Shown here: piece by piece, positions 13,673 through 47,590 of the stretch | How the letters are laid out: the number at the start of each line of letters is the position of its first letter | Numbering within the stretch: the stretch's first letter is position 1 | Origin: Escherichia coli 042 | GTDB taxonomy: Bacteria; Pseudomonadota; Gammaproteobacteria; Enterobacterales; Enterobacteriaceae | Strand: one strand, 5' to 3' | Length of the DNA: 64,000 bases | NCBI RefSeq assembly: GCF_000027125.1 | Contig: NC_017626.1 | Position numbers and translations under genes: made by a program | The notes under the pieces: generated by a model | The model's database searches: none | Told to the model about the DNA's origin: nothing | Seen by the model: the letters and a program-made list of their open reading frames with translations, nothing else

Positions 13673-16600
13673 TTACACCTTTTCCACATTCACAAGGAAG
13701 GACTTAAACTCCGGCGTCTGCGTGTTCGCATCACCAACGAAAGGCGTTAACGTATTGGCAATAAAGCCTTTTTTAGCTACGCCTTCATAGCCCCAGTGAA
13801 TCGGAATACCGATGGTATCGATATCTTTGCCGTTCGCTTTCAGCGTGCGAATACGTTTGGTCACCACCGCTTTGGCTTTGATATAGCCACGGTTGGAGGA
13901 GACTTTCACGGTATCGCCCTGGGCAATGCCAAGTTTATTCGCCAGCGACTCCCCGATTTCCACAAACTGCTCTGGTTGCAAAATCGCGTTCAACAGCGCG
14001 TGTTTGGTCCAGTAGTGGAAGTGCTCGGTCAGACGATAGGTGGTTCCGACATACGGGAACTTATCGGCTTTACCCAACGCTTCGGCGTCGTCTTTAAAGA
14101 TACGCGCAGCCGGGTTCGAGATAACGTTTGGATGCAGCGGGTTAGTTCCCAGCGGCGTTTCAAACGGCTCGTAGTGTTCCGGGAACGGACCTTCCGCCAT
14201 CTTATCAAGGGCAAACAGACGTCCCATGCCTTCCTGCTGCATGATAAACGGCCCTACGCCGCTGCCCGGAGGCGCTGCGCTGTAGTCCGGAATATCCCAG
14301 CCGGTCCACTTAGTGCCGTCCCATTTCAGCAACTGACGCTTCGGATCCCACGGGTTACCCTGCGGATCTGCGGAGGCGCGGTTATACAGGATGCGGCGAT
14401 TAAGCGGCCATGCCCATGCCCAGCCCAGCGTGTTACCGAGGCCAGACGGATCGGCGTTATCACGGCGTGCCATCTGGTTACCTTCTGGCGTCCAGCTACC
14501 GGCGAAAATCCAGCAGCCACAGGAGGTGGTACCGTCATCGCGCAGTTGGGCGAACGAGCTAAGTTGTTGGCCTTTCTTGACGATAACCGCACCGGTTGCC
14601 GGATCGGTAATATCGGCCAGCGCCTTACCGTTGCTCTCCATCGCTACTTCTTCCGACTTCGGCTCATGCGGGATAGCGTAGTTCCAGGTCATGTTCAGCA
14701 CCTGGTCCGGGTTCGCGCCACCCTGTTCGGCATACATCTTGCGCAAGCGCAGGAAGATACCGGAGAGGATCTCGCCATCAGTCAGCGCAATCCCCGGGGC
14801 GTCCGCACCTTTCCAGTGCCACTGCAACCAGCGACCGGAGTTAACGATTGAACCGTTCTCTTCCGCGAAGCAGGTCGATGGCAGACGGAACACTTCGGTC
14901 TGGATCTTCGACGAGTCAACTTCGTTCAGCTCACCGTGGTTCTGCCAGAAGTTAGAGGTTTCAGTGTTCAGCGGGTCGATGGTGACGAGGAACTTCAGTT
15001 TCGACAGACAACCGATCACTTTGTTTTTGTTCGGGAATGAGGCAACAGGGTTAAAGCCCTGGCAGATATAGCCATTGACCTTGCCTTCTTTCATCATCTC
15101 GAAGTATTGCAGGACGTCGTAGCCTTTATCCCACTTCGGCAACCAGTCAAAGCCCCAGCTATTTTCCGCCGTCGCTTTATCACCAAAGAAGGCCTTCATC
15201 ATAGAGACGAAGAATTTCGGGTAGTTGCCCCAGTAGTTTACCTGGCCTTCCAGCAGCGGTTTTGGCGTGTTGGCGGTAAGGTAGGTTTGCAGATCGGTCT
15301 GCTTCTCGCTCGGCAGCGTCATGTAACCCGGCAGGCTCTGCGACAGCAGCCCCAGGTCCGTCAGCCCCTGAATATTGGAGTGACCGCGCAGGGCGTTAAC
15401 GCCGCCGCCTGCCATCCCCATATTGCCGAGCAGCAGCTGGATCATCGCCATCGTACGAATGTTTTGCGCACCAACAGAGTGTTGCGTCCAGCCGAGGGCA
15501 TACAGGAACGAGGCAGTTTTATCGTGAGCACTGGTTTCGGCGATGTATTCGCAGACTTTCAGGAACGCGTCTTTTGGCGTACCACAGATGTTTTCAACCA
15601 CATCTGGCGTGTAGCGGGAAACGTGCTGTTTCAGCAAGTTCCACACGCAGCGCGGATGTTGCAGCGTGGTATCGCGTTTGGCGAAGCCGTTTTCGTCCAG
15701 TTCGTAAGTCCAGGAGGATTTATCGTACTTGCGTTTTTCCGCGTCATAGCCGGTGAACAGGCCATCTTCAAAGCCGTAATCCTCACGCACGATCAGGCTG
15801 GCGTTGGTATAGGCTTCGGTGTATTCGCGGTTGAATTTTTCATTGTTCAGCAGGTACAGCAATACGCCTGACAGGAAAGCAATGTCAGTACCGGAACGAA
15901 TAGGGGCATAGTAGTCAGCCACCGCCGCCGTACGCGTAAAGCGAGGATCGATCACAATCAGCTTCGCGCCATTGTGAATTTTGGCTTCCATCGCCCAGCG
16001 GAATCCGACCGGGTGAGCTTCAGCGGCGTTACCGCCCATCACCACGACGAGGTTGGCGTTCTTGATGTCGACCCAGTGGTTGGTCATCGCACCGCGACCA
16101 AATGTTGGAGCAAGACTTGCTACCGTTGGTCCGTGTCAGACACGCGCCTGGTTGTCGACCGCGAGCATACCCAGCGCGCGGGAGAATTTTTGCGTTAAAT
16201 AGCCGGTTTCGTTACTCGACGCGGAAGCACACAGCATCCCGGTGGAGAGCCAGCGGTTAACGGTCACGCCTTCGGCGTTTTGCGCAATGTAGTTAGCATC
16301 GCGGTCTTCTTTCATCAGTTTGGCGATGCGATCAAACGCCTCTTCCCAACTGATTTGCTGCCATTTATCAGAACCTGGCGCACGGTATTCCGGAAACTTC
16401 AGACGGCTTTCGGAGTGGATGAAATCCACCAGGCCAGCGCCTTTCGGACAAAGTGCACCGCGGTTGACCGGGTGATCCGGATCGCCTTCGATATGGAAGA
16501 TAGATGCTTTGGCGTTTTTTGCTCCGTCACCGAGGCTGTACATCAACAGCCCACAGCCTACGGAACAATAGGTGCAGGTATTACGGGTTTCGCGGGTGCG

Positions 16601-16723
16601 CAGCAGTTTATACTGCCGGGTTTCCGCGAGCGCTACGCTGGGGGCAAAACCCAGTGCCGCTGCCGTGGTGCCTGCCATACCGCCAGCGCAGATCTTAAAG
16701 AACTGCCTTCTGCTGACCTGCAT
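13673..16723 (-). CDS. fdoG: Formate dehydrogenase-O catalytic subunit, selenoprotein with an in-frame TGA (Sec) at 16136-16138
   Basis: Track ORFs 16136..16723 (Tat signal MQVSRRQFFK, ending ...DNQARV) and 13673..16087 are in the same frame and separated only by TGA; the sequence continues HGPTVASLAPTFGRGAMTNHW... as expected for Sec196 of molybdopterin formate dehydrogenases. Confidence 0.9.
16090..16135 (-). promoter_or_regulatory. Candidate SECIS element directing selenocysteine insertion in fdoG
   Basis: Lies immediately 3' of the in-frame UGA on the mRNA and contains the palindromic segment agcaagtcttgct; position matches bacterial SECIS placement. Confidence 0.55.
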
Positions 16724-16916
16724 GGATTGCTCCTTGTTTCGACATTGTCACGTCCCATTTACATTCGCTTGCTGCGTGTGCAGGGAGTGGGAGTTATTTT
16801 TCTTTGCGGAAGGGGCCGCAAAGGTCCAGAATTGGCTCAATTTCCCTCCATCCAGGAAGGGTTTGTAACAGAATACCATAATGTTGGTGTGTGTGTTCTT
16901 ATCTGGTTAAGAGAAA

Positions 16917-17750
16917 GTGAAAAAAACACAGCAAAAAGAAATCGAAAATGTGACAAATGTCACAGGTGTTCGTCAAGTTGAGTTATGGCGGCGTGATGAT
17001 TTACAACACCCACGGTTAGATGAGGTGGCGGAAGAGGTTCCCGTTGCGCTGGTCTACAACGGCATTTCGCATGTAGTGATGATGGCGTCACCCAAAGACC
17101 TTGAGTACTTTGCGCTCGGTTTTTCGCTTTCCGAGGGGATTATCGAAAGTCCACGCGATATCTTCGGTATGGATGTCGTTCCTTCCTGTAATGGTCTGGA
17201 AGTGCAAATTGAGCTTTCCAGCCGCCGCTTTATGGGGTTGAAGGAGCGTCGCCGGGCACTGGCGGGACGTACGGGATGTGGCGTGTGCGGCGTGGAGCAA
17301 CTTAATGACATCGGAAAACCGGTGCAGCCGCTACCGTTCACCCAGACGTTTGATCTCAACAAACTGGATGATGCATTACGTCATCTCAATGATTTCCAGC
17401 CAGTGGGGCAACTGACCGGTTGTACTCACGCCGCCGCCTGGATGTTGCCATCTGGCGAACTGGTCGGCGGGCATGAAGACGTGGGTCGCCATGTGGCGCT
17501 GGACAAACTGTTAGGCCGCCGGTCACAAGAAGGGGAAAGCTGGCAGCAAGGTGCGGTACTGGTTTCCAGTCGTGCCAGTTATGAAATGGTGCAAAAGTCG
17601 GCGATGTGCGGCGTAGAGATTTTGTTTGCGGTGTCTGCCGCGACCACGCTTGCTGTAGAAGTGGCTGAACGCTGTAATTTGACGCTGGTGGGCTTTTGTA
17701 AACCGGGTCGGGCAACGGTTTATACCCATCCGCAGCGTTTGAGCAATTAA
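16917..17750 (+). CDS. fdhD: Formate dehydrogenase sulfurtransferase/accessory protein FdhD
   Basis: 277-aa product; divergent from fdoG. Confidence 0.95.
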
Positions 17751-17758
17751 TTAAAATA

Positions 17759-17795
17759 AGTCCTGCGATATATATTAAATTGCAGGACTTATTCA
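17759..17795 (+). terminator. Hairpin downstream of fdhD
   Basis: agtcctgc ... gcaggact inverted repeat followed by a T-rich stretch. Confidence 0.5.
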
Positions 17796-17799
17796 TTTC

Positions 17800-18461
17800 G
17801 TGAATTTTATTATTTTATTTATAAACAAAACGCGTGTAGTGGCGTTAACGCCTGCGCTGCAACCTATTGATGGCGTGGCGGTGAGTTATATTGATGCTGC
17901 CGTGGCGTTGGGTAATACCATTAACGAAATGGATAAATATTACACCCAGGAAAATTATAAAGACGATGCGTTTGCGAAAGGGAAAACGCTGCACCAGACA
18001 TTCTTAAAAATCTTGAAGCCTTTGAACCTGTAGCAGAATCTTATCATGCGGCGATTCAGGAAATTAACGATAAGCGCCAGCTTGCGGAATTGAAAAATAT
18101 TGAAGAAAGAGAAGGGGAAACATTCCACTACTACTCTCTGGCAGTCATGATTTCAGCGAAACAAATTAATAACCTGATATCGCAAAATAAGTTTGATACA
18201 GAAGCGGCAATGAAGAAAGTGTCTGAACTGGAAACGCTGGTGGCGCAAGCCAAAGAAGCGGATAAAAGCGGCATGAATTTCTCGTTTATTAATTCGGCAG
18301 GCCAGTATCAACTCGAGGCTAAAAAATACGTTCGCCGCATCAGAGATAAAGTCCTGTACTCTGACTGGGATAAAGAGCAACTTCAGGACGCAAACTCAAT
18401 CTGGATGGCCGAAGACTCATTTCCCGAGAGCATTATGCGAGTACAACGAAATGGTCGATGA
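17800..18461 (+). pseudogene. yiiG-like gene remnant, frameshifted and apparently N-terminally truncated
   Basis: Two consecutive ORFs (17800..18033, 18090..18461) in different frames read as one protein if a single indel near 17990-18005 is corrected. No signal peptide is present and the ORF starts right after the fdhD terminator. Resemblance to YiiG is recalled only at low confidence. Confidence 0.45.
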
Positions 18462-18881
18462 AATATTTCAGTCAATTGTAATCGCGGGGCGGGTTTGTGA
18501 TGAGCGCGGATATGTCACGAAGTCGTGACAATATAAAGCAGAGTGAAGGATAAATTTTGTGAATAAAGTATCATTATTTAATGATTTTGTGAATGTTTAA
18601 ATGTCTCAGATAATTTGTTTAAGCGTTATTTATATTTGTGGCTTATGAGTCAGCGTGAATCATATCTAATATTTTTTACGATATTTAGTTAAAAACGGCA
18701 CTATTGTTATATTCCTCACGTTCCAGGAAATCAGCGGATTTACTCATATTATATGGCGGGATACTATCCATCGGCCTGCTGAAGTTGGATTAAAAATTCG
18801 AAAGTGCACACCTTATATTTCTCTATATACGTATTCCTTTTGGAAAGCGTAGGGTCTCTTTTATTTCAGGGAACGTAAATA

Positions 18882-20276
18882 ATGAAAAAATCGACATTAT
18901 CTTTAGCCATCGGTTTATTATTGGCATGTAGTACCGGATTGGCAAAAACACAGCATTTAACGCTGGAACAACGCATGGCATTGCTGGAAGAACGCCTGGA
19001 AGCGGCAGAAATGCGGGCAGCAAAAGCAGAGAGCCAGGTTAAACAGCTGCAGACACAACAAGCCGCTGAGATCCGCGAAATTAAGGCTGCCCAGGGCAAT
19101 ACGCCGGTAAATGGACAGGCAACGGCGGAATCTGCAAAGAAAAATTCCACCTCACCTAATCTTTTGCTCTCAGGTTATGGCGATTTAAAAATCTACGGCG
19201 ACGTAGAATTTAATATGGATGCGGAAAGTAATCATGGCCTGCTGGCAATGACCAACGCTGATGTGAATAGCGATCCCACTAATGAACAGTGGAATCTCAA
19301 TGGTCGTATTCTGTTAGGTTTTGATGGTATGCGAAAACTGGATAATGGTTATTTCGCCGGGTTCTCCGCACAACCGCTGGGGGACATGCACGGTTCAGTA
19401 AATATCGATGATGCGGTATTCTTCTTTGGCAAAGAAAACGACTGGAAGGTCAAAGTAGGCCGTTTTGAAGCCTACGATATGTTCCCGCTGAATCAGGATA
19501 CCTTTGTTGAACATTCCGGTAATACTGCGAACGATCTTTATGACGATGGCAGCGGTTATATCTATATGATGAAAGAGGGCCGCGGGCGCTCTAACGCTGG
19601 CGGTAATTTCCTCGTCAGCAAACAACTTGATAACTGGTATTTTGAATTAAACACGTTACTTGAAGACGGAACATCTTTATATAATGACGGTAATTATCAT
19701 GGACGCGATATGGAGCAGCAGAAAAATGTTGCTTATCTGCGTCCAGTAATTGCCTGGTCGCCGACGGAAGAATTCACCGTTTCCGCAGCGATGGAAGCGA
19801 ACGTAGTAAATAATGCTTATGGTTATACCGATAGCAAGGGTAATTTTGTCGATCAGTCCGATCGTACCGGCTATGGTATGAGCATGACCTGGAATGGCCT
19901 GAAAACGGATCCGGAAAATGGCGTCGTGGTTAATCTTAATACCGCCTATTTAGATGCTAATAATGAGAAAGATTTCACTGCCGGGATTAACGCGCTGTGG
20001 AAACGTTTCGAGCTGGGTTATATCTACGCGCACAATAAGATTGATGAATTCAGCGGTGTAGTTTGTGATAACGACTGCTGGATTGATGATGAAGGGACGT
20101 ACACCATTCACACCATTCATGCGTCTTATCAGTTCGCTAATGTGATGGATATGGAGAACTTTAATATTTACCTCGGGACGTATTACTCCATTCTGGATAG
20201 CGACGGTGATAAAAAACACGGTGATGATACTGATGACCGTTACGGGGCACGCGTTCGCTTTAAATACTTCTTCTGA
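18882..20276 (+). CDS. Putative outer-membrane carbohydrate porin (LamB/ScrY-like) with N-terminal coiled coil
   Basis: 464-aa product: signal peptide MKKSTLSLAIGLLLACSTGLA, a roughly 50-aa Glu/Ala/Gln-rich heptad region, then Gly/Tyr/Asn-rich sequence with alternating hydrophobicity and a C-terminal Phe typical of beta-barrel proteins. Preceded by an AT-rich 420-bp region. Confidence 0.5.
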   Translation: MKKSTLSLAIGLLLACSTGLAKTQHLTLEQRMALLEERLEAAEMRAAKAESQVKQLQTQQAAEIREIKAAQGNTPVNGQATAESAKKNSTSPNLLLSGYGDLKIYGDVEFNMDAESNHGLLAMTNADVNSDPTNEQWNLNGRILLGFDGMRKLDNGYFAGFSAQPLGDMHGSVNIDDAVFFFGKENDWKVKVGRFEAYDMFPLNQDTFVEHSGNTANDLYDDGSGYIYMMKEGRGRSNAGGNFLVSKQLDNWYFELNTLLEDGTSLYNDGNYHGRDMEQQKNVAYLRPVIAWSPTEEFTVSAAMEANVVNNAYGYTDSKGNFVDQSDRTGYGMSMTWNGLKTDPENGVVVNLNTAYLDANNEKDFTAGINALWKRFELGYIYAHNKIDEFSGVVCDNDCWIDDEGTYTIHTIHASYQFANVMDMENFNIYLGTYYSILDSDGDKKHGDDTDDRYGARVRFKYFF

Positions 20277-20316
20277 TGAAGGCGCGGTGCTGGATATTTT
20301 CCGGCACCGCAACTCA

Positions 20317-20631
20317 TTAAGGCAGGTAAAACACTTCTTGCAGCTCGCTACTGACTGGGCTGTTATCCGGGTTAGCTGGCATAACGTCGGTCATATATTT
20401 CCACCAACGTTGGCAAACATCAGTACTGGCTACCGCATTCCACCGTTCTTCAGATTCAATCTCTACCGTGGCAAACAGCAGATTACGCGCTTTGTCGAGG
20501 TAAATGGCGTAGTTATGCGCACCGTGAGATTTCAACACTGCTTCCAGTTCCGGCCAGATTGGATTATGCCGACGCTGATACTCTTCGTGGGCGTCGGGGT
20601 TAACCTGCATGACAAAGGCTTTGCGGATCAT
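20317..20631 (-). CDS. rhaM: L-rhamnose mutarotase
   Basis: 104-aa product recognised as RhaM (YiiL). Confidence 0.9.
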
Positions 20632-20640
20632 GTTTGCTCC

Positions 20641-21465
20641 TTACAGCGCCAGCGCACTGGCGAGTGGTGTAACGCCGAAACGCTGGCCGAGCGCTATCAG
20701 CTCTTCACGGCTGATGGTCTGTTTCATGCCGCCCATCGAATAAACCTTCACTAATACTTGTGCTGATTTTTCTGCGGTGTCGATTAAACCGAATGTTTCA
20801 TCCAGTGTCGGACCGCTGCCGAAGACGCCGTGGAAGGGCCACAACACCAGCGAATGTTTTTGCATTTCCTGTGCGGTCGCCTGGCCGATTTCGTCGGTGC
20901 CGGGCACCATCCACGGCAGAATGCCAACGCCATCCGGGAACACTACCAGACACTCAGTGCTGCCTTCCCACAGTTGGCGAGTGAAGACCGCGGTGTCGTT
21001 TTCCAGTACGTAGGTAAGGGCGATCAGGTTGGTGGCATGGCAGTGCATGATCACCCGATCTTTACCGTTGGTGGCTTTAATGCGTTCGCAATGAGAGAGG
21101 AAGTGCGCCGGAAGTTCAGAGGTTGGAACGGCTTCGTGAGTTAGCCCCCAGAGAATATGGTAGCCCGCGCCGTCGCTGTCGACTTTTACGACGCCTAAGT
21201 TAGCCGCAGGATCAAGCTGGACGTTGCGGAAGAATTTGCCGGAGCCGGTGACAATAAACGGTGTATTTGCCAGTAAAGGCATGGGCTGGCTGAGCGGGAT
21301 ATAGCGCGGTTGTTGGTGGAAGTTGTCGTGATACGGTGCGATATCGGCGTCATCCAGGCGCAGTGTCAGGTTACCACCATTGCGCTCGTCCCAGCCTTTC
21401 AGCCAGGCGTCGGTGGTGGCTTTGATCATTCCCTGGACAAACCAGGACTGGGTAATGTTTTGCAT
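20641..21465 (-). CDS. rhaD: Rhamnulose-1-phosphate aldolase
   Basis: Internal ATG gives the 274-aa product [16 protein letters not shown]...; class II aldolase. Confidence 0.9.
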
Positions 21466-21489
21466 GTTCTGTGTTCCTGTAAATTCGGT

Positions 21490-21545
21490 GTTGTCGGATG
21501 CACGACCCGTAGGCCGGATAAGGCGCTCGCGCCGCATCCGGCAGT
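21490..21545. repeat. REP element between rhaD and rhaA
   Basis: gtaggccggataaggcgctcgcgccgcatccggca palindromic REP unit. Confidence 0.6.
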
Positions 21546-21547
21546 GT

Positions 21548-24560
<3,013 letters not shown>

Positions 24561-30399: not shown

Positions 30400-30450
30400 T
30401 GAACTGCACCCCAAATGTTGGACATAATCTGACATCTGAAGGTGCAGTTT

Positions 30451-30945
30451 ATGAAACATTCATTTGAAGTAAAACTTGCCGCTGTAAATCATTACCTGGC
30501 TGGTCATGCAGGCATCATTTCTACGGCAAAACTCTTTCAACTTTCTCACACCAGCCTCTCACACTGGATTAATCTTTTTCTTCTTCACGGTCCTCGGGCA
30601 CTGGATTGCAGACACAAGCGTAGCTATTCTCCTGAAGATAAACTTTGCGTGGTTCTTTATGCTCTCGGGCATTCTGAGTCTCTACCCCGGGTAGCTGCCC
30701 GGTTTAACATTCCCAGCCACAACACGGTTAAAAACTGGATAAAAGGCTACCGCAAATCTGGTAATGAGGCCTTTATCAGGCGCAGGAAGGAGAAAAGCAT
30801 GACCCGTTCTGATGATACCCATGAAAACGAGGCAAACATGACGCCGGAAGAGATGAAGAATGAGCTGCGTTATCTTCGCGCAGAAAATGCATATCTGAAA
30901 GCCATGCAGGAGCATCTCCTGGAAAAAAAGCGCCAGGAGCTGGAG

Positions 30946-30972
<27 letters not shown>
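30451..30972 (+). CDS. IS3-family transposase OrfA (HTH DNA-binding / leucine zipper)
   Basis: 173-aa product MKHSFEVKLAAVNHY...; AAGGTG RBS upstream; C-terminal coiled coil. Confidence 0.85.
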
Positions 30973-31831
<859 letters not shown>

Positions 31832-36825: not shown

Positions 36826-36932
36826 AAAAGGCCTGATGCGCTTCGCTTATCAGGCCTACATGAATTCTGTAATCTATTGAATTTGCAAACTTTTATAGGT
36901 CGGATAAGGCGTTTGTGCCGCATCCGGCATGG
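36826..36932. repeat. REP/BIME cluster between pfkA and sbp
   Basis: ggcctgatgcgcttcgcttatcaggcctaca and taggtcggataaggcgtttgtgccgcatccggca REP units. Confidence 0.6.
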
Positions 36933-43973: not shown

Positions 43974-47020
<3,047 letters not shown>

Positions 47021-47063
47021 TTACGCTTCATCTTCCGCGTAATTTCTTTACTGTGTAGGCCAA

Positions 47064-47092
47064 CAGGTAACGCAGAAAAAAGGCACTTTGCG
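47064..47092. terminator. Bidirectional hairpin terminator between zapB and rraA
   Basis: aaaaaaggcac tttgcg gtgcctttt: stem flanked by an A-run and a T-run. Confidence 0.65.
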
Positions 47093-47104
47093 GTGCCTTT
47101 TCTA

Positions 47105-47590
47105 TCATTCAATATCCAGCGGATCTTCTGAAAGAATAATCCCGGTATTGTCGGCATAAAGATGGTCGCCGGAGAAGAAGGTGACACCGCCAAAATTGAC
47201 GCGGACATCGCTTTCGCCAATGCCTTCGCCAGCGGCACCAACCGGAATTGCGGCCATTGCCTGGATGCCGATATCCAGCTCTTCCAGGTCATCTACCTGA
47301 CGCACCGCGCCGTAAATGACCAGACCTTCCCATTCATTTTGTACTGCCAGACGCGCCAGTTCAGCATCGACCAGTGCGCGACGAACAGAACCACCACCAT
47401 CGACGACAAGAACACGACCACGGCCATTCTGTTCGAGCAGATCGTACAGCAACCCGTTGTCCTCGAAACATTTTACCGTGATTATTTGTCCGCCAAACGA
47501 CGCCCGTCCGCCAAAGTTGGAGAACAGCGGTTCCACGACGTTAACATCTTCTTGATAGATGTCACAAAGCTCGGAAGTATCGTATTTCAT
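47105..47590 (-). CDS. rraA: RNase E inhibitor RraA
   Basis: 161-aa product [19 protein letters not shown]... Confidence 0.95.

Follow-up and report, generated by a model that had tools for sequence, protein, structure and literature searches.

A described relative of the porin gene considered here is rafY, whose product serves as glycoporin in raffinose operons carried on plasmids (rafRABD-rafY; Ulmke et al. 1997, cited in PMC4809568), and a chromosomal homologue in Escherichia coli O157:H7, which lacks rafRABD, has been called rafY2 (PMC4809568). At the chromosomal locus itself, the frv cluster has been reported to be rare in ST131 (PMC9205054), the “frv operon” is named in a single paper of the literature searched, and the RefSeq annotation of more than 1,000 carrier genomes lists fdhD, a YiiG pseudogene, a “carbohydrate porin” and rhaM. 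As detailed below, the interval between fdhD and rhaM in the 64-kb stretch of DNA analyzed here (the window) is very probably a derived allele generated by deletions within an old enterobacterial locus, in which the porin gene is ancestral and has been retained.

The ORFs of the window were identified by means of an ORF listing coupled with tblastn searches using BL21 proteins, which yielded the order fdoG fragments (minus strand), fdhD, two short ORFs, a gene-free stretch, a 464-codon ORF, rhaM, rhaD, rhaA and rhaB. The interval 17751-20316, bordered by intact fdhD and rhaM genes, contains a remnant of yiiG, an AT-rich spacer and an intact porin gene (Table 1). The G+C contents of the spacer, the short ORFs and the porin ORF are 34%, 44% and 45%, respectively, compared with approximately 55% in the flanks and a window average of 51%. 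The FrvR, FrvX, FrvB and FrvA proteins of BL21 returned no tblastn match in the whole window, while no integrase, insertion sequence or tRNA was found between 14 and 24 kb of the window, and an Rfam scan of positions 16500-21000 returned nothing within the interval. The sole match of that scan was a sub-threshold FdoG thermometer upstream of fdoG. A promoter and terminator consensus scan of positions 17700-20700 recovered five promoter-like sites as against 6.2 in shuffled sequences, and because such sites were no commoner than in the shuffles, no promoter is claimed for either the porin gene or the yiiG remnant. The inverted repeat directly 3′ of fdhD, which has a counterpart in BL21 and which, lying upstream of the first deletion, was retained, is presumed to act as the fdhD terminator, and the hairpin that separates the porin gene from the convergent rhaM is similarly presumed to serve both genes as a two-way terminator.

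Table 1. Features of the fdhD-rhaM interval and its borders (positions of the window; L002, BL21 locus)
Feature	Position	Strand	Description
fdhD	16917-17750	+	Intact; 277-aa ORF, 98.6% identity to BL21 FdhD; left border of interval
Inverted repeat	17755-17793	+	12-bp arms AATAAGTCCTGC / GCAGGACTTATT; directly 3′ of fdhD; read from sequence
Deletion 1 junction	17839-17846	+	8-bp direct repeat GTGGCGTT; ~470 bp missing (L002 2979-3448)
yiiG pseudogene remnant	17839-18461	+	YiiG residues 139-345 of 351; without start codon or promoter
-1 frameshift	18006-18010	+	5-A run; 6 A in intact yiiG and strain 2012C-4502 (alignment, tblastn frames)
+1 insertion near 18419	18417-18423	+	CTCATTTCCC against CTCTTTCCC (alignment, tblastn frames)
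Deletion 2 junction	18458-18461	+	Microhomology ATGA; 4,802 bp missing (L002 4072-8873)
Spacer	18462-18881		420 bp, 34% G+C; retained part of divergent frvA-porin intergenic region (alignment)
Deletion 3	between 18556 and 18557		38 bp, inside spacer (alignment)
RafY-family outer-membrane glycoporin gene	18882-20276	+	Intact, 464 aa
Hairpin	20284-20310		10-bp stem; between convergent porin and rhaM; read from sequence
rhaM	20317-20631	-	Intact; 104-aa ORF, 96% identity to BL21 RhaM; right border of interval

Three layouts of this locus were evident among 5,426 complete E. coli genomes. The window-type layout (fdhD-yiiG remnant-porin-rhaM, without frv), in which a megablast query of window positions 17000-20700 was matched in one collinear place, was present in 1,165 genomes (~21%), the best identity over the query being 98.9%. 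The K-12 type (fdhD-yiiG-frvRXBA-rhaM, with a porin-less frvA-rhaM junction) accounted for a further 2,828 (~52%). A full layout, fdhD-yiiG-frvR-frvX-frvB-frvA-porin-rhaM, was observed in BL21 and in the O157-like cattle strain 116, and its number, approximately 1,400 of the 5,426, was obtained by subtraction rather than by direct count, the remainder being mostly of this type. At a coverage of at least 80%, the frv operon was found in 4,185 genomes and the porin gene in 2,557.

Compared with the full layout, as represented by BL21, strain 116 and Escherichia sp. MOD1-EC7003, the window carries the same flanks, the same porin-proximal intergenic sequence and a porin of 98-99% protein identity, but is short by 470, 4,802 and 38 bp, the full layout having kept an intact yiiG and the frv operon. 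The K-12 layout shares the flanking genes of the window and an orthologous yiiG and has kept frv, whereas 150 bp of unrelated sequence stand where the window has the porin gene. Strains 2012C-4502 (NZ_CP027440), Ecol_316 (NZ_CP018957) and an ST131 isolate (NZ_CP103592) agree with the window in gene order and in all three deletion junctions, although the window differs by 1-2% from every complete genome searched, the best matches being 97.8-99% identical over 4-25 kb.

These comparisons uphold much of what had been proposed in the sequence-only reading, namely, the absence of frv between fdhD and rhaM, the 420-bp AT-rich spacer and 464-aa porin ORF within the interval, and the lineage-specific nature of the arrangement (1,165 genomes carry it, as against some 4,200 that have frv); the K-12 order against which that reading had set the locus, fdhD-yiiG-frvRXBA-rhaM, was verified in DH5alpha. 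The proposal that the porin gene had replaced the frv operon is, however, contradicted by the frv-positive strains BL21, 116 and MOD1-EC7003, in which the porin gene lies between frvA and rhaM. A simple deletion had taken on the appearance of a gene replacement because the comparison was made with K-12, which is without the ancestral porin; far from being a suitable reference layout, K-12 shares its porin-less state with the other genomes of its type and, judging from the outgroup loci described below, its layout is itself derived through loss of the ancestral porin.

The breakpoints were located by blastn and multiple alignment against the BL21 locus, in which positions 17601-17846, 17839-18461 and 18461-20400 of the window correspond to L002 positions 2733-2978, 3449-4071 and 8874-10851, respectively. 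Deletion 1 lies between two copies of the direct repeat and removed 56 bp upstream of yiiG, and with them its promoter, as well as codons 1 to 138, which include the start codon and encode the lipoprotein signal peptide (…LGLTGC), and the resulting junction is identical in 2012C-4502 and ST131. Deletion 2, the junction of which is identical in 2012C-4502, ST131, RM14516 and Ecol_316, removed the last 6 yiiG codons together with frvR, frvX, frvB, frvA and the frvA ribosome-binding site. The 38 bp of deletion 3 are kept in all three of the aligned frv-positive genomes and are missing from all three of the aligned frv-negative genomes. Aside from these three deletions, the interval can be aligned to the full layout over its entire length, and the AT-rich spacer is, on this alignment, evidently what the deletions spared of the ancestral region between the divergent frvA and porin genes; its approximately 280 bp closest to the porin start hardly vary among E. 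coli and Escherichia sp.

YiiG of BL21 and K-12 is a protein of 351 aa with an N-terminal lipoprotein signal, MKRNLLSSAIIVAIMSLGLTGC. The remnant in the window is clearly homologous to this YiiG/DUF3829 lipoprotein, with 93% protein identity distributed over two frames (tblastn), while a complete ORF possessing a start codon and lipoprotein signal (…LTGC) is absent from the window. The ORF fragments at 17800-18033 and 18090-18461 match YiiG residues 139-200 and 194-337, respectively, in different frames. Traced along the remnant, the first frame carries residues 139-195 from 17839 to approximately 18008 and the second residues 194-337, following which the +1 insertion brings the final 11 codons back into the first frame, such that residues 335-345 end at 18461; the first 138 codons and the last 6 (codons 346-351) are missing. 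On its 5′ side the remnant has no upstream region of its own, being preceded by the fdhD stop codon, the inverted repeat and then 45 bp. The earlier description of a frameshifted, N-terminally truncated “yiiG-like” gene with two frames joined near 17990-18005 was correct as to the truncation and the reality of the frame join, but the gene is the orthologous yiiG, deleted in place, the join is situated a few bases further to the right, at the 5-A run, and the second frameshift near 18419 had escaped notice.

The lesions of the remnant are not distributed evenly among the carriers. The +1 insertion is common to the window and 2012C-4502 and is not evident in the ST131 alignment; 2012C-4502 is without the -1 A-run frameshift of the window; and ST131 harbors an extra 124-bp deletion between two AAGGGAAAAC repeats which the window does not have. 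Such stepwise lesions give the stretch the look of a decaying pseudogene, and it is as a YiiG pseudogene that RefSeq annotates the corresponding stretch in other genomes. The dN/dS of the remnant is 0.19-0.41, as against 0.19-0.22 between intact copies (excluding the near-identical BL21/K-12 pair), values which derive from too few sites to reveal relaxed constraint, and it is by its structural lesions that the remnant is judged to be a pseudogene. The literature search returned no functional study of yiiG.

The porin matches the Pfam family PF16966, Porin_8 (“Porin-like glycoporin RafY”), with an E value of 3.7e-154, its residues 104-464 covering positions 1-372 of the 372-position model, and its N-terminal coiled-coil extension displays a weak match to the maltoporin/ScrY-type extension (E value of 0.06). 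As read from the translation, the protein commences with a hydrophobic signal, MKKSTLSLAIGLLLACSTGLA, ending in …STGLA and terminates in …RFKYFF. Membership in the RafY family is unambiguous, being indicated by the full-length profile match, by close homology to a raf porin, and by an export signal combined with the C-terminal signature; an NCBIfam scan assigned the porin to no family, and a sequence search of solved structures returned chance matches only (E values above 0.7). A copy with approximately 86% DNA identity occurs on about 200 E. coli plasmid records, among which pNMBU-W05E18_03 encodes a LacI regulator, an alpha-galactosidase, an MFS permease and a GH32 protein, followed by a 464-aa porin, this being a raf operon whose porin shares 79% identity over 450 aa with that of the window. 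RafY of the plasmid raffinose operons thus has the same length and belongs to the same family as the window porin, but is encoded within a plasmid raf operon, whereas the window porin is chromosomal, unlinked to raf genes and positioned tail-to-tail with rhaM.

Seven chromosomal porin alleles were compared, all of which comprise 464 codons free of lesions, with dN/dS values of 0.04-0.12. The ST131 allele is much more divergent from that of the window (dS = 0.20, dN = 0.011). Because the porin is under purifying selection, it is most likely still a functional outer-membrane sugar channel which operates independently of frv. A more specific role, as a dedicated channel of the rhamnose locus that might admit, for instance, oligosaccharides containing rhamnose, rather than as a raffinose porin, is suggested by its tail-to-tail position with rhaM in more than 20 species, its survival of repeated frv losses and the strong purifying selection; no link between RafY homologues and rhamnose or rhaM was found in the literature, and we regard this role as a speculative and rather unlikely one.

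The polarity of the change was assessed by searching the porin protein against one genome per species, which returned 80 loci that were then annotated by tblastn with ten BL21 proteins. The divergent Escherichia sp. MOD1-EC7003 possesses the full layout, including yiiG, and frv genes were located upstream of the porin gene in 13 further loci, 12 of which have all four genes while 1 is cut inside frvX. These 13 loci derive from Citrobacter braakii, C. amalonaticus S646, three Kluyvera-type genomes, Enterobacter spp., two Trabulsiella strains and other Enterobacteriaceae, and their products share 87-94% (FrvB) and 54-76% (FrvR) identity with those of E. coli. A convergent rhaM no more than 700 bp downstream of the porin gene was observed in more than 20 species, among them members of Klebsiella, Raoultella, Pseudocitrobacter and Superficieibacter. 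Since the porin gene adjoins frv and rhaM at the same site across genera, it is concluded to be an old resident of the locus. yiiG occupies its site in every Escherichia locus that covers the fdhD-frvR interval and in no other genus examined. Loss of frv with retention of the porin gene was also apparent in Kluyvera georgiana, where the fdhD-porin gap measures 971 bp, and in Citrobacter sp. R56, and on these comparisons the frv losses in several species are seen as independent and recurrent. Because the frv-porin-rhaM order occurs in outgroups and the full layout occurs within Escherichia, the state of the window is taken to be derived; the species scan contained only two Escherichia loci besides complete E. 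coli, so that polarity within the genus rests on MOD1-EC7003 and the other genera, the second locus being that of an approximately 90%-identical genome, labeled E. coli E69, in which the sequence immediately upstream of the porin gene is rearranged.

The opposite polarity, in which the compact layout would be ancestral and frv and a full-length yiiG would have been inserted in other E. coli, finds some encouragement in those species in which fdhD is close to the porin gene without frv, such as K. georgiana with its 971-bp gap. A fragment that begins at codon 139 and has no start codon cannot, however, be the ancestor of a full gene, and both copies of the direct repeats found at the junctions are present in the long form. 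Furthermore, frvRXBA is found at this same site, and in the same direction, in Citrobacter, Kluyvera, Enterobacter and Trabulsiella, with identities of the order anticipated for vertical descent, and insertion into an ancestral compact locus is, therefore, considered highly improbable; the sequence-only reading had likewise treated the compact state as derived, a view with which the outgroup loci and the full layout with its intact yiiG agree.

Equally improbable, in our estimation, is the replacement of yiiG-frvRXBA by a segment that was obtained through horizontal transfer and brought with it both a yiiG-like gene and a porin gene. While the G+C content of the interval (34-45%) is below the window average and K-12 has neither the porin gene nor the arrangement of the window, the porin gene and frv reside together at this site in BL21, strain 116, Escherichia sp. 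and many other genera, the remnant is collinear with K-12 YiiG, and the whole interval aligns to the frv-positive full layout save for the three deletions. Neither the interval nor its immediate surroundings contain an integrase, insertion sequence or tRNA, and a replacement island was rejected on the grounds that the sequence is native to frv-positive genomes, is devoid of mobility genes and tRNA, and contains a porin gene that is syntenic. An artefact, whether a collapsed assembly or a homopolymer error, would account for one frameshift being situated in a homopolymer run, and the sequence-only reading had raised sequencing error as a concern. The structure is, however, present in 1,165 complete genomes, Ecol_316 aligns to window positions 14000-22000 without a gap over 8 kb (98.64% identity), and the exact 64-bp allele at 17977-18040 with 5 A occurs in 24 independent complete E. 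coli genomes, and is therefore an inherited allele rather than an error; correction of the A run would in any case not rescue yiiG, which is already dead from two deletions. Such an artefact is accordingly given practically no credence.

As to the origin and spread of the derived deletion allele, the spacers of four deleted haplotypes are 97.1-98.8% identical to each other and 91.9-96.7% identical to those of frv-positive genomes, while the flanks are mosaic among carriers, with identities of 95.7%-98.2% across fdhD and 94.6%-97.6% across rhaM-rhaD. Identical junctions and the similarity of the local spacer haplotype point to a single origin of the deletions. The mosaicism of the flanks suggests that recombination has shuffled the neighborhood, and the allele may have spread between lineages by recombination as well as by descent.

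We propose the following order of events, starting from an ancestral arrangement fdhD-frvRXBA-porin-rhaM in which, in Escherichia, yiiG would have separated fdhD from frvR. Three deletions in a single E. coli lineage, arising by illegitimate recombination at short direct repeats, presumably through replication slippage or microhomology-mediated deletion, would have removed 470 bp at GTGGCGTT (deletion 1), 4,802 bp at ATGA (deletion 2) and 38 bp (deletion 3). Jointly, they would have cost the lineage the 5′ third of yiiG along with the signals for its expression, all of the frv phosphotransferase operon and part of the sequence between frvA and the porin gene, while neither the RafY-family porin gene nor its terminator or conserved upstream region would have been affected. 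The remnant would subsequently have decayed further, through the +1 insertion shared with 2012C-4502 and the -1 slip in the A run found in the sublineage of the window, with the 124-bp deletion arising separately on the ST131 branch.

The feature described here is an ordinary lineage deletion polymorphism which was already known, being annotated by RefSeq and noted in ST131 pangenome work, and the base-level dissection of its junctions adds detail to it without establishing a novel type of feature. Wide conservation marks the RafY-like porin next to the rhamnose genes, which is functionally uncharacterized and, perhaps because K-12 is without it, is not known to have been studied. For the fdhD-rhaM locus K-12 is a poor reference, and the loss observed in the window, which matters little, joins the many other presence/absence polymorphisms that affect cryptic operons for sugar uptake in E. 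coli.

The porin-less layout of K-12 is more than the full layout (fdhD-yiiG-frvRXBA-porin-rhaM, as in BL21) minus its porin gene, as is apparent when the junction of K-12 DH5alpha (L003 15726-16025) is set against the corresponding interval of the window (18462-20316). The frvA-proximal intergenic part of DH5alpha is only 86% identical to that of BL21, and a further 150 bp of the K-12 junction (L003 15875-16024) is without a counterpart in BL21. A porin-less junction of K-12 type represents the majority state, being present in 2,828 of the 5,426 complete E. coli genomes compared. A 77-bp 3′ stub of the porin gene is retained in some genomes (H95).

Among these 5,426 genomes, those closest to the window share approximately 97.8 to 99.4% identity with it over stretches of 4 to 25 kb, and strong mosaicism is evident across the fdo-rha region. 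The window's strain belongs to a lineage which has no representative among these complete genomes. RM14516, a relative with the same frv-less deletion junction, differs from the window elsewhere: its copy of the IS1397-family element is situated between pfkA and sbp, a site which is empty in the window (36911-36915), and its zapB-rraA interval (L086 32717-34243) spans approximately 1.5 kb and harbors two hypothetical genes, compared to approximately 90 bp in the window (47017-47106).

Additional features of the window, with coordinates
Feature	Position	Strand	Location	Remark
IS1397-family element	30400-31831		between yiiM and cpxA	1,432 bp
~40-bp unit	21503-21543		rhaD-rhaA intergenic	copy number and spacing vary between strains
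FdoG-1 5′ UTR thermometer	16694-16892	-	upstream of fdoG	sub-threshold Rfam match

The short rhaD-rhaA unit, which has two matching places in comparison locus L014 and interrupts the alignment to L001-L005, is probably a REP-type repeat. The thermometer match scored 32 bits (E value of 2.9e-5), below the Rfam gathering score of 50.

In CP089930.1, which came from the one-genome-per-species scan, is labelled E. coli E69 and shares only ~90 to 93% identity with E. coli, the porin-rhaM pair adjoins selB-yiaY-aldB rather than fdhD, thus placing a rearrangement breakpoint directly upstream of the porin gene. Contig CACSKA010000012.1, whose record names Chryseobacterium sp. 18061 as the source, bears an fdhD-frvRXBA-porin-rhaM locus of typical enterobacterial type; the organism name is probably an error, or contaminating DNA entered the assembly.

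The porin allele of ST131 (L004 4747-6141) remains under purifying selection despite its unusual distance from the window allele (18882-20276) and all other E. coli alleles. Because its dS relative to other E. coli alleles is 0.20 to 0.23, versus 0.01 to 0.09 among those others, the data suggest that the ST131 allele was either imported or is very old.
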